This document shows, piece after piece, positions 10,137 to 60,096 of a stretch of 64,000 nt of DNA. Numbering within the stretch: position 1 is the first letter of the stretch; each line of letters starts with the position of its first letter. Both the position numbers and the translations under genes were made by a program. Source of the stretch: a virus; the IMG/VR virus record IMGVR_UViG_3300025128_000015, positions 32,001 to 96,000 of that record; one strand, written 5' to 3'. The notes under the pieces are model-generated. The model worked only from the letters and a program-made list of their open reading frames with translations. It made no database searches and had not been told where the DNA came from.

Positions 10137-13100
10137 ATGGCTGAGAAAAAGTTTAAATTCGTATCTCCAGGAATCTTTATCGATGAAATCGACGATTCTG
10201 GAGTACCAAATTCCGGTGGTGACATTGGTCCCGTCGTTGTTGGTCGATCGACCCGAGGGCCGGGAATGCGCCCCACAAGAATCGAATCTTTCTCTGAATT
10301 CGTTCAAGTTTTCGGTGCACCGACACCAGGAAACGACACAGAAAAAGATGTTTGGAGAAGCAACAACCCTGTTGGTCCGACATACGCTGCCTACGCTGCT
10401 CAGGCATGGCTTAAAAACAATACACCCCTTACGTTCGTTCGTTTGATGGGTGAGGAGCATCCTGCTTCTTCTACTTCAGGTAAGGCTGGTTTTAAAACAA
10501 CTAACACGTTTAATGAGACTAACTCTAGTAACGGCGGCGCCTATGGCCTTTTCTTGATTAATTCTGCATCTATTAATGGCGGAGACCAAGCGGGTCCCTT
10601 TAATCTTCCTACTGGAACCCTTGCTGCTGTTTGGTACATCCAACGCGGCGGAATGGCCCTCTCTGGAAACGTGCCAGTTGGCGCCCGCGGACACGATATA
10701 AGTGCCGTTGCAACCGTGGGACACTCAGCGGAAACAGCTTCAGCAGGTGGATTAATTCAGAATGCTGCTAGCAATACATGGACAGTTGTACTTAACGATG
10801 GCGCCTCAACAGACAGCACCAACGGAGTTATTTCCGGTAAAAAATACACTTTCAACTTTGATAGAAATAGCTCAAAGTTTATCCGAAACGTTTTTAATAC
10901 AAATCCGGTTTTAACTAATTCAAATATTGCTAGCACACAGCAGTATCACTGGCTTGGTGAAACATTCGAAGGATCCGTTGCGAAACATATTACAAGCGGA
11001 TCCACTGCAGGAACAGTTTTTGGATTCATCGCTGGATTAGGTACATCAACTACGGTAGGACATCACCACCGTCAGATGCCAGCCCAGCCTTCTAAGACTG
11101 GTTGGTTTATTTCGCAAGACCCGAGAGCCACAAATGCCAACTTTACTCCGGACGGACAAGCTTATGTAAAACAACTTTTTAGGTTTGTTTCTCTTGACGA
11201 TGGTGAGTGGGCTCAGAGCAATCTTAAGATTTCTATTGCAGACATTAAAGCACCAAGAAACAACTACGAAAAGTACGGTTCTTTCAGTGTTCTAATTCGT
11301 GATATTCGTGATGCTGACAATGCTCCAAGTATTGTTGAAAAATTCACAAATCTTAACTTAAACCCTTCTTCTGAAAACTTTATTGCAAAGAGAATCGGAG
11401 ATCAGCATCTAGTTTGGGATGATGAATTAAGTGTCCCAGGTGGAAAAGCCCGTTATAAACTACGTGGAGATTACCCGAACGTTTCTAGATTCTTTAGAGT
11501 AGAACTAAATGATGAAGTCAAGCTCGGATTAGACAACACAGAGCTACTTCCGTTTGGTGTCAGAGGACCATTACGCTACAAAGGCTGGTCTTTCAAAGGA
11601 CGTGACACACAGGCTTACCAAATTAATCAAAAAACTTCCATCGCTGCAGCACCCGCCGTAGCAATGTTTCAATTTTCTGATAACATCAACGATGAATCTA
11701 TATTTACATTTACAGATGCACTAGGGACGTCAGCAACGTTTGAAGTTGATCGCGCCTCCGCCGATGGGGCAGCGACCGCCGGCGCAGTCGCCCTGGCAGG
11801 CTATGCAAACAACGGAGAGGGACTTGCAACCGCGCTTAAAACTGCACTTGATGCATCTGCTCTACGAATTGATACAGTCCGTTCCACCGCAAAATTGACC
11901 CTTACAATGCAGGACGCCGGCGCCTCTGGTAATACACAGATCATAACTACTGCTGGCGTCGATTATAATGTTAATGAATCCCATCAAGGGGTCAAGCCTC
12001 TCGACGCAATGCCGACTCAATTTGAAGACGGCGCCGATGCTTTGGGACCAGTGCACACGGCTGCTACTTTATTCCTTGAAGCCGACCCGGCAGTAATACC
12101 TTATAAACATGGTGTACACAAGGGCGCAGGCGCCGAACAAGCTGCTGGAAAAAATCCAATCGCACCAGAAAGTATCCCTGCTCACAGTGCTTCCGCGGCC
12201 GGCTATTCGGCCAAGCCAATACAAGCACTATCTGGAGCATTTGTATTCCCAGCTATCTCCATGAGATCTTCTTCTTTAGACGGAAATCTTTCTGATAGAA
12301 CAGATGCTTACTTTGGCGCAACTTATAATCGATTAGGTGAAGCAACAAAATCTAATCTATTTGATGAGAGTTCGATCGATGTCGTCCGCGCTCTCGCAGC
12401 TAGTTATTCCAAGAACACTTGGGATCCCGCCGCCGAAGATACCGCAGTCGAGCATTCTTGGACGTTTACCTTGGATGACTTACAGAAAGCTTCTGGAACA
12501 GACTTCTTGTCGGCCATATATGTCTCTGGCTCTAGAGCAAGTGGAGAATCTTTTACAGCTGTCTCTCAATCCTATAGAGAGATTTTGAGCAATGGTTACG
12601 ATAGATTTACCGCCGCTCTTTATGGTGGATTCAATGGTCTCGATGTAACAGAAGCTGAGCCATTCGGAAACCATAGACTGGATGACAGCAGTAATGTAAA
12701 AGATAACTATGCTTACTACTCAGTTAAGAAAGCTATCGACACTGCTAGCGATCCAGAAGCTGTCGAAATGGACCTTCTCACTGTTCCAGGTGTAACCGAC
12801 TCTAGCCTCACAGAACACATGATTAATGTTTGTGAAGATAGAGGCGATGCTCTAGCAGTTATTGATATCGTCAACGACTACATTCCGCGTTACGAAAGTA
12901 ATTCTTCGGAAGCATCTAGAATCGGAACGGTAGTATCGGCTGTCAACACATTCAAGGATAGAGGGCTCAATTCCAGTTACGGATGTGCATTCTATCCATG
13001 GGTACAGGTAAGAGATTCTGCCTCTGAGACCGTCCCTGGTAAGCTTGTATGGCTTCCACCTTCGGTTGCAGCCCTTGGTACGTTCTCTAGTACTCAGCGC

Positions 13101-13631
13101 AACGCAGAATTGTGGTTCGCCCCTGCAGGCTTCAACCGCGGTGGGCTTTCCGAAGGAAGCTCCGGACTTAATGTTGTAAACGTGCGACAGAGATTGACTT
13201 CTGTTGACCGTGATCGCCTCTACGGCGCCAACATTAACCCAATTGCCAAGTTCCCATCGGAAGGAATTGTAGTCTTCGGACAGAAGACACTACAAGTAAC
13301 ACCTTCTGCACTTGACAGAATTAATGTTAGAAGACTTCTCATCTTCCTTAAGAAGAGAATTTCTAGAATCGCTGCAGGCATCTTGTTTGAGCCAAATGTT
13401 CAGACAACATGGGATCGTTTTGTTGGCCGTGTCAATCCATTATTAGAGAGTGTCAAGGCTCGCTTCGGATTAACAGACTTCAAAGTTGTCTTGGATTCCA
13501 GCACAACAACAGATGATCTTATCGATCAAAATATTCTTTACGCCAAGGTCTTCTTGAAGCCCACTAAAGCTATCGAATTTATCGCACTCGACTTTGTAAT
13601 TACAAATAGTGGTGCATCGTTTGAGGATTAA
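10137..13631 (+). CDS. Contractile tail sheath protein (gp18-like) with large insertions
   Basis: FVSPGIFIDEID N-terminus; WLPPSVAALG, WFAPAGFNRG, INPI..FP.EGIVVFGQKTLQ..PSALDRINVRRLLIFLKK C-terminal sheath motifs. Confidence 0.96.
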   Translation: MAEKKFKFVSPGIFIDEIDDSGVPNSGGDIGPVVVGRSTRGPGMRPTRIESFSEFVQVFGAPTPGNDTEKDVWRSNNPVGPTYAAYAAQAWLKNNTPLTFVRLMGEEHPASSTSGKAGFKTTNTFNETNSSNGGAYGLFLINSASINGGDQAGPFNLPTGTLAAVWYIQRGGMALSGNVPVGARGHDISAVATVGHSAETASAGGLIQNAASNTWTVVLNDGASTDSTNGVISGKKYTFNFDRNSSKFIRNVFNTNPVLTNSNIASTQQYHWLGETFEGSVAKHITSGSTAGTVFGFIAGLGTSTTVGHHHRQMPAQPSKTGWFISQDPRATNANFTPDGQAYVKQLFRFVSLDDGEWAQSNLKISIADIKAPRNNYEKYGSFSVLIRDIRDADNAPSIVEKFTNLNLNPSSENFIAKRIGDQHLVWDDELSVPGGKARYKLRGDYPNVSRFFRVELNDEVKLGLDNTELLPFGVRGPLRYKGWSFKGRDTQAYQINQKTSIAAAPAVAMFQFSDNINDESIFTFTDALGTSATFEVDRASADGAATAGAVALAGYANNGEGLATALKTALDASALRIDTVRSTAKLTLTMQDAGASGNTQIITTAGVDYNVNESHQGVKPLDAMPTQFEDGADALGPVHTAATLFLEADPAVIPYKHGVHKGAGAEQAAGKNPIAPESIPAHSASAAGYSAKPIQALSGAFVFPAISMRSSSLDGNLSDRTDAYFGATYNRLGEATKSNLFDESSIDVVRALAASYSKNTWDPAAEDTAVEHSWTFTLDDLQKASGTDFLSAIYVSGSRASGESFTAVSQSYREILSNGYDRFTAALYGGFNGLDVTEAEPFGNHRLDDSSNVKDNYAYYSVKKAIDTASDPEAVEMDLLTVPGVTDSSLTEHMINVCEDRGDALAVIDIVNDYIPRYESNSSEASRIGTVVSAVNTFKDRGLNSSYGCAFYPWVQVRDSASETVPGKLVWLPPSVAALGTFSSTQRNAELWFAPAGFNRGGLSEGSSGLNVVNVRQRLTSVDRDRLYGANINPIAKFPSEGIVVFGQKTLQVTPSALDRINVRRLLIFLKKRISRIAAGILFEPNVQTTWDRFVGRVNPLLESVKARFGLTDFKVVLDSSTTTDDLIDQNILYAKVFLKPTKAIEFIALDFVITNSGASFED

Positions 13632-13705: not shown

Positions 13706-14260
13706 ATGGCATCAGGTTACTGGGCAGATCAAGGCATTCAGCCGAAAAGACAATATAAATGGATACTACAATTTAGTGAGCTTGGTAGTGCCACTGGAGC
13801 AGGAGCAGTGCTCCCACAGTGGATTGTAAAAACAGTAAGCAAGCCATCTTTTACTATTGGTGAAGCTTCACATGCTTTCATTAATCACACCTTTCACTTT
13901 CCAGGTAAATTAACATGGTCGGCAATCGACGTGACAATGGTTGATCCTATTACTCCAAACGCTTCTGATGCTCTTATACAAGCTATCCGTGCTTCGGGAT
14001 ACCAATACCCCAATGAAGGACAAAATGGCACTTCTGCTGGTACCTCCTTCAGCAAGGCTGCAGCTACAAGCGTATTAGGCGAAGTTAAGTTAATTCAACT
14101 TGGTAACACAATCAATGAGAGAGTTGAAGAGTGGAATCTAAAGAATGCTTGGATTAAAGATGTTAACTTTGGAAGTCTTTCTTACGACACAGAAGAATTG
14201 ACAACTATCAGCATGACATTGCGTTATGACTGGGCTCAATACGAAAAGTTGTTGGGTTAA
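13706..14260 (+). CDS. Tail tube protein (gp19-like)
   Basis: QPKRQYKWIL, VSKPSFTI, FPGKLTWSAIDVTMVDP, EEWNLKNAWIKDVNFGSLSY; follows the sheath gene. Confidence 0.9.
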   Translation: MASGYWADQGIQPKRQYKWILQFSELGSATGAGAVLPQWIVKTVSKPSFTIGEASHAFINHTFHFPGKLTWSAIDVTMVDPITPNASDALIQAIRASGYQYPNEGQNGTSAGTSFSKAAATSVLGEVKLIQLGNTINERVEEWNLKNAWIKDVNFGSLSYDTEELTTISMTLRYDWAQYEKLLG

Positions 14261-14341: not shown

Positions 14342-15229
14342 GTGTCTAGAAGAAATAGCCGTGCTCGTTCGGGCGGCACGGAGAAAAAAACGCCCGCTGA
14401 TTCCTCTGCTGAAGCAGCACTTAGCTTGCAAAAAGAAGAAGGCTCTGGACTTCTTTCTTTTGTTGCTCCAACAGAGTTTGTTAATTTGCCATCACAAGGC
14501 AAATTTTATCCACCAGAACATCCTTTGCACAATGAAGGTGTCGTAGAAATTAAATATATGACAGCAAAGCATGAAGATATTCTTACTTCACAAACTTTAT
14601 TGCGTAAAGGCGTTGCAATCGATCGCTTAATAGAAAACTTGATTATTGATAAGAGCATCAAATTAGATAGTCTTCTTTTAGGTGATAAAAATGCAATTAC
14701 AATTGCAGCTAGAAAAACTGGCTATGGCAGTGAATACACTACTGGCATGACATGTCCTAGTTGTGGTAATAAGCAAGATCATTCTTTTGACTTGGATGAG
14801 CTTGGCCATAATTTTCCGTCTAAAGAAGAGTTGGATGAGTTTGGGATTGAATTAACAGAGACAGGTACTTTCCTTATTGCGCTCCCACAAACAAAAGTTG
14901 TTCTTGAAACAAGACTTTTAACTGACGCAGACGAGAAGATGCTAGAAAAAACTAGCAAGATGCGTAAAAAGCATAATCTTGGACGCGGTGAGATTACACT
15001 GACAGATCGTCTTAAATCTGTAATCGTATCAGCAAATGATGAAACCAAGAGATCTATGATTGAACAATTTGTTGATAATATGCCAGCCTTGGATGCTAAG
15101 TTCTTTAGAACTGCATACGCTGCATTAACTCCTAACGTTGACATGAAGCAAGAGTATCGATGTGAAGCTTGCGGACACGAAGAGGAGGTTGATGTGCCGC
15201 TCTCGGCAGACTTTTTTTGGCCTGGGTGA
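14342..15229 (+). CDS. Baseplate hub assembly / tail assembly chaperone (gp26/gp51-like, G part)
   Basis: VNLPSQGKFYP, IKYMTAKHEDIL, LLLGDKNAITIAARKTGYG, two CxxC pairs, ends in FFWP; GTG start; upstream of tape measure. Confidence 0.8.
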   Translation: MSRRNSRARSGGTEKKTPADSSAEAALSLQKEEGSGLLSFVAPTEFVNLPSQGKFYPPEHPLHNEGVVEIKYMTAKHEDILTSQTLLRKGVAIDRLIENLIIDKSIKLDSLLLGDKNAITIAARKTGYGSEYTTGMTCPSCGNKQDHSFDLDELGHNFPSKEELDEFGIELTETGTFLIALPQTKVVLETRLLTDADEKMLEKTSKMRKKHNLGRGEITLTDRLKSVIVSANDETKRSMIEQFVDNMPALDAKFFRTAYAALTPNVDMKQEYRCEACGHEEEVDVPLSADFFWPG

Positions 15230-15416
15230 AAAATATATTGAATCTGTTTATGAACAATTCTTCTTGCTTAAATATCATGGCGGCTGGAGTTTTATCGAAG
15301 CATACAACCTTCCAATCCCCTTGAGAACTTGGTTTGTCAACAGACTAGCCAAGCAATTTGAAATTGAAACAGAGGAAATAGAAAAAGCTTATAAGAAAGC
15401 AAAAAGCTCTAAATAA
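15162..15416 (+). CDS. Tail assembly chaperone T-like ORF, probably expressed by +1 frameshift from the upstream gene
   Basis: Overlaps the 3' end of 14342-15229 in the +1 frame across TTTTTTT (15212-15218); YEQFFLLKYHGGWSFIEAYNLPIPLRTWFV resembles GT-type chaperone C-terminal domains. Confidence 0.7.
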   Translation: MKLADTKRRLMCRSRQTFFGLGEKYIESVYEQFFLLKYHGGWSFIEAYNLPIPLRTWFVNRLAKQFEIETEEIEKAYKKAKSSK

Positions 15417-15417
15417 C

Positions 15418-15449
15418 AAGCCGGCTCTATGCCGGCTTTTATTTTTTTT
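15418..15449 (+). terminator. Intrinsic terminator
   Basis: AAGCCGGC-TCTAT-GCCGGCTT followed by a long T-rich run. Confidence 0.85.
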
Positions 15450-15462: not shown

Positions 15463-15487
15463 TTTATATGATGTGAGGATGCGCTTT

Positions 15488-15823
15488 ATGAAAGAAAATA
15501 CAATTGAAATTGACTTAGATTATAAAAAAACTAAAAATTTAGAAGAAGGTGTTGTGCACACCGCTCCTGCAGCCCTTGGAGACGCTGTAAAAATAGCTCT
15601 ATGGGATATGTTTGGATATCAGTCAGCACCTTCAATTGATCTTAAGGGTACACCTCAACAAATTAGCGCATTTGTCACTGCTTTAAGCGGAGAAAAGAAA
15701 TACTTGGACAGCATTATGAGAAACGGACTAGATAGTCCTATGACCTATAAAAGCAAGTATTCTTTAGAGAACGCAATAAGTAATTTTGAAAGAGAAACTG
15801 GTATAGAGTGGCCAGTTAAGTAA
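15488..15823 (+). CDS. Hypothetical protein (ORF track start 15473; ATG 15488 fits the GAGG SD better)
   Basis: Open frame with an SD, directly upstream of tape measure. Confidence 0.6.
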   Translation: MKENTIEIDLDYKKTKNLEEGVVHTAPAALGDAVKIALWDMFGYQSAPSIDLKGTPQQISAFVTALSGEKKYLDSIMRNGLDSPMTYKSKYSLENAISNFERETGIEWPVK

Positions 15824-15834
15824 GAGGACCTTGA

Positions 15835-18441
15835 ATGGATGAAGAACTGAAAAGTTTATTAAGGGATTTGATTTCTAAAATGAATCAAAACCAGAATAAC
15901 CAAGGCGGACCCGCGCCCCAAGGCACTCCCATGGGTCCTAGTCCTGTACAGGATTATCAAAGCCGAGCACAAGCTGTTCAACAAGAAGCTGCAACTCTAA
16001 CTCAAATCGAACAAATGAATATACGACGTCGCTCCGCCGAAGACGCAATCACTCGCAATCTAGAGACACAAAAAGCTGCAGCAAAAAACATTGAGAGCAC
16101 AGTAGCGCGGATTGTAAAAGAAAGAAGGCTTGAAGCAGATGCAGCAAGATCCTCTTACAGTGAACAAGAAAAAATTGTTAACGCTCTCCAGAGAGACCTA
16201 GAATTAACTCGTCAAAGCGGAGAATTTACTCAAGGAGAAATACGATACAAGGAACGACAATTAGTATTAGGCAAAGAGGTTCTTCGCGACTTGCAACAGA
16301 AAGTGCAACTAACACAGGCTGCAGCCCAAGAAGCACAGCGAGAAGCTGCCCTTGTAGCTCAAGTTCGCGATAGAACGCAGTCTTTGGTATCAACGTTGAC
16401 ACAGGGTGTCTTAACGGCTAACGCAGCTAGCAAAACTGGCATGTTTGGTGCCTTATTCGGTTCCGGGTCAGGAGCAGGGTTCTTCGAAAAGTTAAAAACA
16501 GGTGGTCAAGCAATTGGACAGATCATTTCTCCTTTAAACGCTTCTTTGAGCGTTGTGGGTTATTTGACAGATGCGTTCAAGAAGCTTTTCTTTGCAACAG
16601 ATCAATCTGCAGCCCAATTTAGACGAGCAACTGGCGCAGGGCAAGAATATACAAAAGTTCTAACTCAAACAATTCAGAGAAACACCAAATTTGCTGTTAT
16701 GTCTGACGAAGCTGGAAAAGCGATGACCACACTTTTCAATCAAGTCCGCTTGTTCTCAGGAATGACCGACACAGCACAAAAATCTGTTTTAGATTTAACA
16801 GTTCGCATGAATCGCTTAGGTGTTGCAGAACAACAAACTGCTCAAATGACAGATATGCTCACGAAAGCCATGGGAATGAACATAAATCAGGCCATCGGCG
16901 CCATTGATAAATTGGCTGTATACGCTCGTCAGATTAAAATAAGCGAAGGCGAGGCTACTCAAGCATTTATGCAGTTTTCTGGTGTTCTTGCTGCTCACGG
17001 ACCAAACATGATGAATGTTTTTAAAGGTTTATTGCAAACCGTTAAGAACACTGGTATTGAGATGAGCAGCTTGATGCAGATTGCTAGTCGGTTTGACACA
17101 TTTGATCAAGCTGCAGCTTCAGTCGGTACTTTGAATGCTCTATTGGGTGGTAATTACTTAAATAGCATTAGAATGGTTAATGCTACGGAACAAGAAAGAC
17201 TGAGCTTGGTCGCACAATCGATCCGAGCGTCTGGAGCCAATCTAGATGCAATGGGAAGGTTTCAACAAAAAGCCATTGCACAGGCTATTGGAGCAAAAGA
17301 TGCAGCCGAAGCTATGAGACTTCTCAGAGGCGAACTTGGCATGCTAACTCCAGCAGAATTAGAAGCTGCTCGCGCTGCCGAACTTAACAAACAAAAAGCA
17401 CAAGAAAACATGGATATCCAAATGAAATTAAGAACGATATTCATGTCACTTGTACACTCACTAATGCCTTTAATCGAGAAGCTTCATGAAAATAGAGACG
17501 CAATTGTTAGATTGGTTGACAGAGTAGCCAAGTTTATGCAAGAAAATGGAAAATTGATTGCACAGTTTGCCGTATTATATCCTATCTTGCGAACAGCCGC
17601 CACTGCTATCGGAGGAGTTACTACAGCTTTTAGGGTCATGGGTGCTGCCTCGGGAGCCGCCCGATTGGGTATAGTAGGACTGGCCGGCGGATTTACTTAT
17701 CTAGCAATGCAGTTATTCAAACCACTCTTTTCGCCACCTCTTTATTTAGGAATGAGGGATTTTGGAGATTCGATTAAAAGGACTGGTTCAGCTGCCAATT
17801 CTGCGGCACCCAATTTTCGTAATTTAGGACAATCAACCGGAGAGCTAGCTAAAAACACTTCAGTTGCTTCACAAACCACTGCACAACTTGGAAGTGCAAT
17901 AGGTCTTATAGGCAAAAATTCTTCTGCAGCCGCCACCGGTATAAGAAACATCGCCACTGCAGGAATCACAGCTAGCAGGGGCATGAGTGATGCAGCCAAT
18001 AGCACAGCACAGCTAGCTTTTGGAGTTCAATCGATACAGAAAAACGTTGACAATTTAAATACTGCCAAACTAGCTGATTTTGGTGAAAAGATAAAACGTG
18101 TCAACGAAAACATGAACTTAAGCGCGACAGAAAATGAAAACGTCGAGAGAACAATAACTAATATTAATAGAGTTGCTATTGTTGGACAACAAGCAACTGA
18201 AGCTGCTTCTGCTGCTGGTGTAGAACGCCTTGCTGCAGCCGCACACAAGTTTAGTCTAACACAGGTCAATCAGTCAACTCAGGTCGCCGCAGCAGCCTCT
18301 GGGGGTCAAGGTTCGAGCGTGCACGTTGTCGAAGCACCTAGATCTGTACAGATCGACCTTGATGGAGTGTTGGTTGGTGAAGCGGCCTTAAACTTTGTAA
18401 ATAGAGAAAGAGACTCACAGACTTTGGTCGGTAGAGCATAG
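15835..18441 (+). CDS. Tape measure protein
   Basis: 868 aa, A/Q-rich, helical; FDTFDQAAASVGTLNALLGG motif; position after chaperone genes and before baseplate genes. Confidence 0.88.
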   Translation: MDEELKSLLRDLISKMNQNQNNQGGPAPQGTPMGPSPVQDYQSRAQAVQQEAATLTQIEQMNIRRRSAEDAITRNLETQKAAAKNIESTVARIVKERRLEADAARSSYSEQEKIVNALQRDLELTRQSGEFTQGEIRYKERQLVLGKEVLRDLQQKVQLTQAAAQEAQREAALVAQVRDRTQSLVSTLTQGVLTANAASKTGMFGALFGSGSGAGFFEKLKTGGQAIGQIISPLNASLSVVGYLTDAFKKLFFATDQSAAQFRRATGAGQEYTKVLTQTIQRNTKFAVMSDEAGKAMTTLFNQVRLFSGMTDTAQKSVLDLTVRMNRLGVAEQQTAQMTDMLTKAMGMNINQAIGAIDKLAVYARQIKISEGEATQAFMQFSGVLAAHGPNMMNVFKGLLQTVKNTGIEMSSLMQIASRFDTFDQAAASVGTLNALLGGNYLNSIRMVNATEQERLSLVAQSIRASGANLDAMGRFQQKAIAQAIGAKDAAEAMRLLRGELGMLTPAELEAARAAELNKQKAQENMDIQMKLRTIFMSLVHSLMPLIEKLHENRDAIVRLVDRVAKFMQENGKLIAQFAVLYPILRTAATAIGGVTTAFRVMGAASGAARLGIVGLAGGFTYLAMQLFKPLFSPPLYLGMRDFGDSIKRTGSAANSAAPNFRNLGQSTGELAKNTSVASQTTAQLGSAIGLIGKNSSAAATGIRNIATAGITASRGMSDAANSTAQLAFGVQSIQKNVDNLNTAKLADFGEKIKRVNENMNLSATENENVERTITNINRVAIVGQQATEAASAAGVERLAAAAHKFSLTQVNQSTQVAAAASGGQGSSVHVVEAPRSVQIDLDGVLVGEAALNFVNRERDSQTLVGRA

Positions 18442-58369: not shown

Positions 58370-58446
<77 letters not shown>

Positions 58447-58466
58447 TAAACTATAAGGAGAAAAAA

Positions 58467-58637
58467 ATGGCTGATGGAAGAGTTACAACTAAACAGTTGC
58501 AGGAACAATTAAATACAGTGTCGAGCCGTCTTAGTAAGATGGTTGACGATATGTATGTTCTAAAAGAGGAGTTAGGTCGCTTTAAAGCTGCCGTGGCTCA
58601 GGATCTTACTAAAGTTATTAAGAAGATTAATGACTAA
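58467..58637 (+). CDS. Small coiled-coil protein between tRNAs (56 aa; not in the ORF track)
   Basis: AAGGAG SD; MADGRVTTKQLQEQL...KIND. Confidence 0.6.
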   Translation: MADGRVTTKQLQEQLNTVSSRLSKMVDDMYVLKEELGRFKAAVAQDLTKVIKKIND

Positions 58638-58642
58638 AGATC

Positions 58643-58718
58643 GGGCTCATAGCTCAGTGGTTAGAGCTGCCGGCTCATAACCGGTAGGTCCCTGGTTCAA
58701 ATCCAGGTGAGCCCACCA
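58643..58718 (+). tRNA. tRNA with CAU anticodon, Ile2-like (otherwise elongator Met), CCA encoded
   Basis: GGGCTCA stem with 1-72 paired, GCCGG-CT-CAT-AA-CCGGT, GGTTCAAATCC, ends ACCA. Confidence 0.9.
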
Positions 58719-58723
58719 AAACC

Positions 58724-58796
58724 GCTAATGTAGCTCAATTGGTAGAGCAGCTGATTTGTAATCAGCAGGCTGTAGGTTCAAGTCCTATCATTAGCT
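58724..58796 (+). tRNA. tRNA-Thr(UGU), no encoded CCA
   Basis: GCTAATG stem, GCTGA-TT-TGT-AA-TCAGC, GGTTCAAGTCC. Confidence 0.92.
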
Positions 58797-58820
58797 TACA
58801 CACATATAAAAAGGATAAAG

Positions 58821-59456
58821 ATGATTTCAACTAATTGGATATCTGAAGTAGATTCAGATGAGCAGCCGCAAGCACTAGCAATGGCGGCCGAGGAAGCAGG
58901 GAGTGCATCCGATAAAGACCAAGTTTTGCAGGTTAATAACAGGATATATTTTTATTCTGAAGTAAAAAGAGCTAAAATTCTTACTTTAAACAAGACTTTA
59001 AAGAACTTGGAAATTAATTTGGCCAATCGTGCCGGCACTTTACAGACGACACACATCGGAGATATATATCTTTACATTAATTCTTATGGGGGTAGTGTGT
59101 TTGCAGGGCTCTCTGCTGTTGATTATATTAAAAACTCAGAAGTTCCCGTAACAACAATTATCGATGGCTGCGCTGCTTCAGCAGCCACGATGATGAGTGT
59201 CGTTGGATCACACAGATTGATGAACGAGTATGCCTTTATGCTTATTCATCAGTTATCTGCTGGTAGTTGGGGAAAATATGAAGAATTGAAAGACAACATG
59301 TCAAATAACGACTTGTTGATGAAAACTATCAAAGACATCTACACCAAGCATACGAAGATACCTGCTAAAGAATTATCGAAAATACTGAAGCATGATTTGT
59401 GGTGGGATGCCAAGACGTGTTTGAAGTACGGGTTGGTCGATGAGATCATAACCTAG
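58821..59456 (+). CDS. clpP: ClpP-family protease subunit (copy 2)
   Basis: YLYINSYGGSVFAG, DGCAASAAT (Ser), MLIHQLS (His), DAKTCLKYGLVDEI. Confidence 0.9.
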   Translation: MISTNWISEVDSDEQPQALAMAAEEAGSASDKDQVLQVNNRIYFYSEVKRAKILTLNKTLKNLEINLANRAGTLQTTHIGDIYLYINSYGGSVFAGLSAVDYIKNSEVPVTTIIDGCAASAATMMSVVGSHRLMNEYAFMLIHQLSAGSWGKYEELKDNMSNNDLLMKTIKDIYTKHTKIPAKELSKILKHDLWWDAKTCLKYGLVDEIIT

Positions 59457-59540
59457 CCGAAGTGGTGGAATTGGTATACACAACAGACTTAAAATCTGTC
59501 GCTCTTTGTGGGCTTGCGGGTTCGAGTCCCGCCTTCGGTA
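59456..59540 (+). tRNA. tRNA-Leu(UAA), long variable arm, no encoded CCA
   Basis: GCCGAAG stem, TGGTGGAATTGG, ACAGA-CT-TAA-AA-TCTGT, GGTTCGAGTCC; G1 is the last base of the clpP TAG. Confidence 0.93.
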
Positions 59541-59547
59541 TTTTCTC

Positions 59548-59575
59548 TTGACCTTTGGTCATCGGTGCTTACTTT
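59548..59575 (+). promoter_or_regulatory. Sigma70-like promoter TTGACC-N16-TACTTT
   Basis: Just after tRNA-Leu, upstream of ATG 59611. Confidence 0.5.
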
Positions 59576-59610
59576 ATTAATAAGAAAAGAAACTACCAAA
59601 AAGAGGCTAC

Positions 59611-59751
59611 ATGTTAGATCACTTATTTAATTTAGTTTTAGCTTCTTCACAAAGTGAAGAGCTTTATAGGTTGGGCTGTTATGCCAGTGATACTTTTGCT
59701 GGGTATACAACAAATGGAAAATTTATTTTTTACGCAATGTGTGTTGCATAG
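59611..59751 (+). CDS. Small hypothetical protein (46 aa; not in the ORF track)
   Basis: GAGG SD; MLDHLFNLVLASS...MCVA. Confidence 0.45.
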   Translation: MLDHLFNLVLASSQSEELYRLGCYASDTFAGYTTNGKFIFYAMCVA

Positions 59752-59759
59752 GAGAATAC

Positions 59760-60008
59760 ATGAAGCTTTATTTATTAGTACAATATCAAAATCAGAGCGA
59801 TGACTCTTATGATTCCTGTGTGGTTGTGGCTAGAGACGAAGAAGCCGCCCGAAACGTACATCCAATGGGCGACTGGGACAGAGTAGACGTTTGGACTTAT
59901 GGACCTGAAGATATCGAGGTATCATATCTTGGCGAGGCCAGAGAAGACATAGAGAAGGTTGGCTTTTCCTTGAATGTAAATAATGTGATATGTTCTAGCT
60001 TTAATTAG
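59760..60008 (+). CDS. Hypothetical protein (ORF track start 59739)
   Basis: AGGAG SD; YDSCVVVARDEEAARNVHP. Confidence 0.6.
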   Translation: MKLYLLVQYQNQSDDSYDSCVVVARDEEAARNVHPMGDWDRVDVWTYGPEDIEVSYLGEAREDIEKVGFSLNVNNVICSSFN

Positions 60009-60023
60009 ATGAACAGAGAGTGA

Positions 60024-60096
60024 TGCGCGGTAGCTCAGTTGGTAGAGCCGGCGGCTGTTAACCGCCTGGTCGCAGGTTCGAGCCCTGCCCGCGCAG
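60024..60096 (+). tRNA. tRNA-Asn(GUU), no encoded CCA
   Basis: TGCGCGG stem, GGCGG-CT-GTT-AA-CCGCC, GGTTCGAGCCC. Confidence 0.93.

Follow-up and report, generated by a model that had tools for sequence, protein, structure and literature searches.

Gene 14342 of a 64,000-nucleotide (nt) stretch of viral DNA (the window), which corresponds to bases 32001–96000 of the 189,594-bp IMG/VR record IMGVR_UViG_3300025128_000015, is predicted to direct the synthesis of a short and a long tail assembly chaperone by programmed +1 ribosomal frameshifting, in a manner resembling the gpG/gpGT pair of phage lambda. The probability of this interpretation is put at roughly 0.8. The record is rated complete by CheckV, and its only PF12322 gene is the one described here.

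The open reading frame (ORF) at 14342..15229 (+ strand, as for all features below) starts with GTG and encodes a 295 amino acid (aa) short form in the 0 frame that ends ..ADFFWPG, and the 3′-end of the ORF reads GAC (15209) TTT TTT TGG CCT GGG TGA (15227–15229). The slippery run of seven T residues (T7) lies at 15212..15218, and from 15219 the +1 frame is open until TAA at 15414–15416. If TTT at 15215–15217 is read, T 15218 is skipped and GGC is read next, the product is a 357-aa long form (14342–15217 then 15219–15413, spanning 14342..15416) with the junction ..SADFF/GLGEK.., in which the 65 codons of the +1 frame (GLGEKY..WSF..YNLP..LR.., 15219..15416 including the stop codon) would supply a C-terminal domain. 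An earlier sequence-only reading had proposed this arrangement, and the end of the gene, the position of the T residues, the continuation GGC CTG GGT GAA to 15416 and the products of 357 aa versus 295 aa were all as it had described. A terminator that it placed at 15418 was also found, as a terminator-like hairpin (15418–15438) followed by a T-run (15418..15449 in all) directly 3′ of the extension. Its claim that the +1 frame has only weak start codons of its own, ATG at 15192 and at 15162, held with one small correction: the ATG at 15192 is in frame and lies 3 nt after GAGGAGG, but the in-frame start at 15162 is GTG, with an ATG at 15160 that is out of frame.

In the proposed mechanism, most ribosomes would read UUU UUU UGG CCU GGG through to the UGA and release the short form. 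In a fraction of them, peptidyl-tRNA-Phe on UUU at 15215–15217 would re-pair on UUU at 15216–15218, placing GGC as the next codon, and the shifted ribosomes would run to 15416 to produce the long form, made up of the N-terminal body and a helical domain of ~65 aa. By analogy with lambda gpG/gpGT, the body common to both forms would bind the tape measure protein and the extension would recruit another tail component, for example the tube protein; neither form would remain part of the virion.

As a signal, the UUU_U (YUU_Y, where Y is a pyrimidine) appears to act as a bare shift-prone site that lacks an RNA stimulator, and the shift efficiency is therefore probably low and fixed. The UUU_Y site is present in the window as P-site UUU at 15215–15217 followed by U 15218, and CUU_U or UUU_C equivalents occur in relatives. 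A signal of the prfB type, which has a Shine-Dalgarno (SD)-like stimulator about 3 nt upstream together with an A-site stop codon, is not present: the SD-like sequence GAGGAGG ends 26 nt 5′ of the shift codon, and UGG occupies the A site. Shift-prone UUU_Y sites are known in bacteria from Escherichia coli argI and from the Yersinia YopN-TyeA fusion (PMC5009743). These share with the site described here the same tetranucleotide and re-pairing of the P-site tRNA-Phe one base downstream, with no need for a stop codon or an SD stimulator. However, argI and YopN-TyeA are single genes, whereas the site described here recurs throughout a large phage family, in which it is linked to an out-of-frame domain that is itself conserved.

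Conservation of the proposed shift site and the extension

A T7 run is by itself ordinary in the window, where 42 are found versus 62.5 ± 10.8 in shuffled sequences, and the significance of this run therefore comes from its conservation. Relatives were collected using tblastn, which identified Microcystis phage Mel-JY01, Flavobacterium phage immuto and an uncultured 484-kb phage, and two scans of IMG/VR, from which 94 further loci were taken out of at least 595 relatives. For the 95 related loci with a complete gene end (36–91% identity), a profile of the extension was scored against the three forward frames. The extension was in the +1 frame in 92 of these and in the −1 frame in the remaining three. 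A UUU or CUU codon followed by U (YTT_T) was found at the aligned junction in 91 of the 92 +1 loci. In Mel-JY01, immuto and the 484-kb phage, the homologous +1 extension was found together with the gene order sheath, tube, gp26-like gene and small ORF, and next after the small ORF comes an annotated tape measure gene in immuto, whereas in Mel-JY01 it is a long ORF without a name.

In the 82 distinct loci that are +1 and have YTT_T, the 12-nt junction was TTTTTTTGGCCT in 65, TTTCTTTGGCCT in six, TTTTTTTACCCT and TTTTTTTGGTCT in three each, TTCCTTTGGCCT in two, TTCTTTTGG(C/T)CT in two and TTTTTTTGGCCA in one. The segment TTT TTT TGG CCT is near-invariant (1.6–2.0 bits per position), and an uninterrupted TTTTTTT is present in 72 of the 82. 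The variants TTT CTT T, TTC CTT T, TTC TTT T and TTT TTT TAC all keep YUU followed by a pyrimidine, and on a deeper branch TTT TTT C or TTC TTT C accompanies a +1 extension in Bacillus phages SP-15 and HSE3 and in a Streptococcus phage. Slippage of the P-site tRNA by +1 on YUU_Y is the predicted event that fits every one of these site variants. Where the shift site carries a Phe codon it is TTT in 69 of 69 cases, compared with 553 TTT to 157 TTC (78% TTT) elsewhere in the same genes. The independent metagenome relatives L004 (91% identity) and L005 (80% identity) have the identical T7 and frames, indicating that the run is not a sequencing error.

Start codons for the extension were less regular. 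No ATG, GTG or TTG was found in the +1 frame between the upstream stop codon and a point 10 codons past the junction in 29 of the 82 distinct loci, and the +1 frame was closed by a stop codon no more than 15 nt upstream of the junction in 32 of 82. Where starts do exist their positions vary between loci, while the T-run is conserved instead. As so many loci have no start or are closed upstream, and as start positions are not conserved, independent initiation cannot explain the family.

The profile of the extension matched 1557 cluster representatives in a library of 1.84 billion proteins, most of them calls of small ORFs. DUF6760 (PF20546) was matched by the window extension at 14.3 bits (E 0.044), which is below the cut-off of 27, and weakly by 37 of 64 extension members at E ≤ 0.1 (best 1.8e-5). 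A search of the extension against NCBIfam returned nothing meaningful. In database records the extension is annotated from a TTG start (Mel-JY01) or as a short internal ORF of 37–56 aa (immuto, SP-15 and HSE3), or its front part or all of it is left unannotated, and the records of these four phages include no joined coding sequence for the short form and extension. The TTG start annotated in Mel-JY01 is unlikely.

In-frame long forms, T4 gp26/gp51 and the predicted fold

Five proteins of 308–318 aa (P0033, P0044, P0077, P0110 and P0143) were found to carry PF12322 followed by the extension in a single frame. Their junctions, ..SIFGLSAENK.., ..NVFGISSKDK.. and ..ISILGLEPKDK.., fit the predicted ..DFF/GLGEK.. 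and not the 0-frame ..FFWP. On two contigs with an in-frame long form (L105 and L106), a short PF12322 paralog is located just upstream and ends ..FFWPSLGEIN or ..FFWPDVDV, with the Phe-Phe pair encoded by TTC TTC TGG and no slippery UUU-pyrimidine. T4 gene 26 has TTC TTT G at the equivalent Phe-Phe and also no slippery run. The amino acids are thus kept everywhere, but retention of the slippery nucleotides is confined to loci in which the extension is out of frame.

Four further candidates for fused forms were rejected. P0005 and P0007 combine the extension with unrelated sequence, as a result of chimeric contigs or read-through calls, and in P0008, from a 1.2-kb contig, an internally deleted body was joined to the extension. 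P0006 came from L099, a European Nucleotide Archive contig labelled 2x that has T8 rather than T7 and in which the frame is broken a second time, nearer the 5′-end of the gene. Both defects most probably arose during assembly at low coverage.

The recurrence of the T7 run and the +1 overlap in homologues had been named by the sequence-only reading as a check on its proposal, and both were found (+1 frame in 92 of 95 loci, YTT_T in 91 of 92). The +1 shift that it proposed is further supported by the 29 of 82 loci with no start and by the in-frame fusions with the predicted junction.

The window product matched PF12322 at 55.1 bits (cut-off 24.5) over residues 47–293 (profile positions 7–219 of 219) and phrog_150 at E 1.4e-15, and both families also include T4 gp26 and gp51. 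PF12322 covers gp26 (208 aa) over its whole length and gp51 (249 aa) over residues 1–201, after which gp51 continues. On the 282-position phrog_150 profile, gp26 aligns to positions 14–235 and gp51 to 13–280. The window product aligns as far as its junction, at 235, whereas natural long forms reach 272–280. Thus the C-terminal extension of gp51 (~45 aa) and the extension of the natural long forms both fall at profile positions 236–280, and gp26 ends (EFFELL) at the point where the short form does (DFFWPG). However, the T4 proteins are encoded by two separate, divergently transcribed paralogs with no slippery run, and this phage has one gene. A direct comparison of the extension profile with the single gp51 and gp26 sequences using hhalign gave no hit, and an alignment to the gp51 tail made by eye was not confirmed directly, and hence homology of the gp51 extension is transitive, via the PHROG alignment. 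Both gp26 and gp51 are listed as hub assembly chaperones (Leiman et al. 2010, PMC3004832, Table 2).

In a tree of 64 sequences, gp26 and gp51 were sisters on long branches, the five in-frame long forms formed one clade, and their short partners nested among the +1 genes. The three −1 loci made up one nested clade, and jumbo phages Atu_ph07 and XacN1 formed a separate clade apart from the +1 groups.

An AlphaFold2 model of the short form (predicted local distance difference test score, pLDDT, 89; predicted template modelling score 0.82) was compared with 48,161 representatives of the Protein Data Bank (PDB). Only three chains reached Z ≥ 5, namely 3fgx (6.5; 88 of 96 residues aligned), YqbN (3klu; 5.9) and the HK97 tail assembly chaperone (2ob9; 5.2), all aligned to residues ~26–138, and the next chain had a Z of 4.2. 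The same three chains were recovered with a model of a natural long form (pLDDT 93). As the scores are modest, the fold is taken as supporting evidence and not as proof. A sequence search of the PDB found nothing for either the body or the extension, and Foldseek found nothing in the PDB at E ≤ 0.001. The extension was modelled as a three-helix unit with no informative structural match, and when it was compared alone with PDB structures only generic helical matches were seen.

Objections and rival explanations

Several observations weigh against frameshifting as the route to the long form, or against the chaperone assignment. All of the fold matches fall below Z 8, the level graded clear by the comparison tool. 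No conserved RNA structure was detected downstream of the site (alifold empty, mean z −0.44), and the SD-like motif 26 nt upstream of the shift codon in the window is too far away for known effects. The 0-frame A-site codon UGG is not known to be slow in the host of this phage. A −2 slip, or slippage of RNA polymerase on the T7, would reach the same frame as a +1 shift. The sole +1 locus without YUU_U, L002, has its own +1-frame ATG just upstream, and an ATG 27 nt upstream of the junction and 3 nt after GAGGAGG is present in the window, L004, L005 and L006 only. Finally, the three loci with the extension in the −1 frame (L067, L084 and L095, one clade) have no recognisable signal, as neither a U-run nor an X_XXY_YYZ heptamer was found in them and L084 has no start codon in the −1 frame. 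It follows that other expression routes exist in the PF12322 family.

Other features around these sites were recorded. SD-like motifs are present 15–40 nt upstream in 59 of 81 relatives, encoded by different residues. Just 5′ of the T-run is a small hairpin with a 5-bp stem (TGCCG-CTCT-CGGCA, 15195..15208), which in combination with the T7 is scored as terminator-like. For this upstream hairpin the mean z is −0.69; similar small GC stems recur in relatives, but in differing registers and not significantly. The short forms of the three −1 loci end ..TTC TTC TGG CCT TCC CGG TAG or ..TGG CCC TCC CGG TAA (near L084:2200–2300). In the jumbo phages Atu_ph07 (L102) and XacN1 (L103), the U-run is in the register T_TTT_TTC or T_TTT_TTT and is followed in the −1 frame by an ORF that was judged extension-like by eye; with the extension profile neither gave a score. 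The run register and the putative shift direction thus differ from those of the window.

The extension could instead be a separate small gene, in which the ATG at 15192, with GAGGAGG (15182–15188) as its SD sequence (15182..15194 in all), starts a 74-aa protein and the overlap reflects compact packing. The ATG and SD-like sequence of the window clade, the upstream ATG of L002 and the hundreds of such small extension ORFs listed by gene callers would be accounted for in this way. However, the 3-nt spacing is below the usual SD optimum, and the ATG derives from 0-frame GAT/AAT GTN (Asp/Asn-Val) and is lost in L017 (55% identity), where Asn is AAC. Across the family, 29 of 82 relatives are start-less and in 32 the frame is closed no more than 15 nt upstream, start positions vary while the T-run is kept, in-frame fusions exist, and the run is gone where a separate long-form gene exists. 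A separate gene is therefore considered unlikely, though initiation at ATG 15192 may add to expression in the clade of the window.

Slippage of RNA polymerase on the A7/T7 template, by which a fraction of the transcripts would carry U6 or U9 and encode the long form without a break, would suit the 72 of 82 relatives with an uninterrupted T7, and bacterial and phage genes with slippage on homopolymers are known (PMC5009743). Yet the run is interrupted in ten distinct +1 relatives (TTT CTT T, TTC CTT T or TTC TTT T), where only YUU_Y is kept, and the Bacillus and Streptococcus phages with TTC TTT C have the same +1 extension. In addition, seven residues is short for efficient polymerase slippage, and the change required, loss of 1 nt or gain of 2 nt, is the rarer kind. 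Polymerase slippage is thus held to be improbable, somewhat more so than a separate gene. The ribosomal shift could also be −2, with tRNA-Phe slipping back two bases and an extra Phe inserted (..ADFFFGLGEK..). Re-pairing on UUU UUU U would again be perfect and the frame the same, and the chaperone gene of phage Mu is reported to use a −2 shift. However, a −2 slip in TTC CTT T, TTC TTT T or TTC TTT C would place the tRNA on UCC or UCU, a mismatch to its anticodon, whereas re-pairing by +1 on UUU/UUC is good, and the natural in-frame forms have one aromatic/aliphatic residue pair before GL, not three residues. A −2 shift therefore seems a shade less probable even than polymerase slippage. That the break is a homopolymer sequencing error or a decayed gene, the true gene being one continuous ORF, can be given almost no weight. 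Homopolymer errors are common and the low-coverage contig L099 shows T8 and another frame break, but 72 distinct relatives, drawn from many separate samples, share exactly this T7 and these frames; L004 (91%), L005 (80%) and four isolates with complete genomes are among them.

Gene neighbourhood, known counterparts and the gp26/gp51 family

The gene order on the + strand is sheath, tube, gp26-like gene, overlapping +1 ORF, terminator-like hairpin, a 116-codon ORF and an 868-codon ORF. The sheath gene (10137–13631) was identified by phrog_23 at 3.4e-66. It encodes a protein of 1164 aa, in which the sheath-family match is confined to the last ~420 residues and the N-terminal ~740 residues have no match. 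The upstream neighbour of the gp26-like gene encodes the tail tube protein (13706..14260; phrog_4542 at 1.3e-23). Between the predicted chaperone gene and the probable tape measure gene is the 116-codon ORF (15473–15823), which has no family match; small ORFs in the equivalent place are found in Mel-JY01 (71 aa) and L099 (113 aa). The 868-aa product of 15835..18441 is probably the tape measure protein, judging from its position and from its nearest named Atlas clusters, PhageMin_Tail and TMP_3. Tape measure genes are annotated in the equivalent position in immuto, SP-15 and HSE3. No direct tape measure family match or Pfam hit was obtained for the 868-aa protein, and BLASTP revealed no similarity to the immuto tape measure protein. 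A gp25-like gene is located further downstream of the tape measure candidate.

A blastn search of the region against 50,697 phage records returned no match. The window also includes a cluster of five tRNA genes (58370–60096; Arg-tct, Met-cat, Thr-tgt, Leu-taa and Asn-gtt), none of which reads the shift-site codons.

The conserved frameshift of tail assembly chaperone genes is summarised in a standard review (PMC5009743), which covers Levin 1993 and Xu, Hendrix and Duda 2004, 2013 and 2014. The gene described here is like lambda G/GT in lying between the tube and tape measure genes, and in having a slippery site near the 3′-end and a predicted C-terminally extended product that shares its N-terminus with the short one. 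It differs in that the predicted shift is +1 on UUU_U, whereas that of lambda is −1 on a heptamer of the G_GGA_AAG type. The body differs as well, being a PF12322 protein of ~250 aa that has a Cys4 zinc-ribbon-like site; it is roughly double gpG in size and has no sequence similarity to it.

Closer in direction are the haloarchaeal myoviruses (HSTV-2 and the HF1 group), in which a +1 shift between two ORFs is predicted, again between the tube and tape measure genes (PMC5009743, PMC7230728). In the HF1-group haloviruses this shift is predicted at TTT-CGC (PMC7230728). The UUU_C of the haloviruses is like the TTT_C of SP-15, HSE3 and GXN1 in the PF12322 family. However, their hosts are archaeal and their shift is likewise a prediction only, and the chaperone ORFs of HF2, the sole halovirus compared, had no detectable match to PF12322 or DUF6760. 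Frameshifting of G/GT chaperone genes and a predicted +1 version of it in haloarchaeal myoviruses are therefore already known (PMC5009743, PMC7230728), and what is new is the finding of G/GT logic in the gp26/gp51 family via a predicted +1 shift. A literature search, with most subscription journals outside it, found no paper describing a frameshift in the PF12322/gp26-gp51 family.

The sequence-only reading also suggested that gp26-like genes, usually annotated as ‘baseplate hub’, encode frameshifting tail chaperones. Backing for this comes from the position between tube gene and tape measure, the modest likeness of the modelled fold to those of the HK97 chaperone and YqbN, and the short and long paralogs gp26 and gp51 of T4. 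The gene label ‘baseplate hub subunit’ is probably misleading, and hundreds to thousands of phage genomes have an unannotated or mis-started small ORF at this place, as in the records of Mel-JY01, immuto, SP-15 and HSE3. The site also provides a large natural data set, with internal controls, for the bare UUU_Y +1 signal.

The standard review describes G-T frameshifting as conserved among long-tailed phages ‘except T4’ (PMC5009743), and for decades it has been unclear what T4 gp26 and gp51 do in hub assembly (PMC3004832). The gp26/gp51 family has the position of the chaperone, a predicted chaperone-like fold, and a short and a long form that would be made by frameshifting in most lineages and from two genes in T4. 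On balance, we favour the view, held with less confidence than the +1 shift itself, that the whole PF12322 ‘baseplate hub’ family, including T4 gp26 and gp51, is the missing G/GT-type chaperone of T4-like, jumbo and many other myoviruses. The pair would be essential enough to have been preserved along three interchangeable routes, a +1 shift on YUU_Y, a −1 shift on U_UUU_UUY and gene duplication giving a separate gene for each form, with several switches between them. As T4 would make the pair from genes 26 and 51, this would explain why it appears to be an exception to the G-T frameshift rule, and T4 would instead be a resolved version of that rule.

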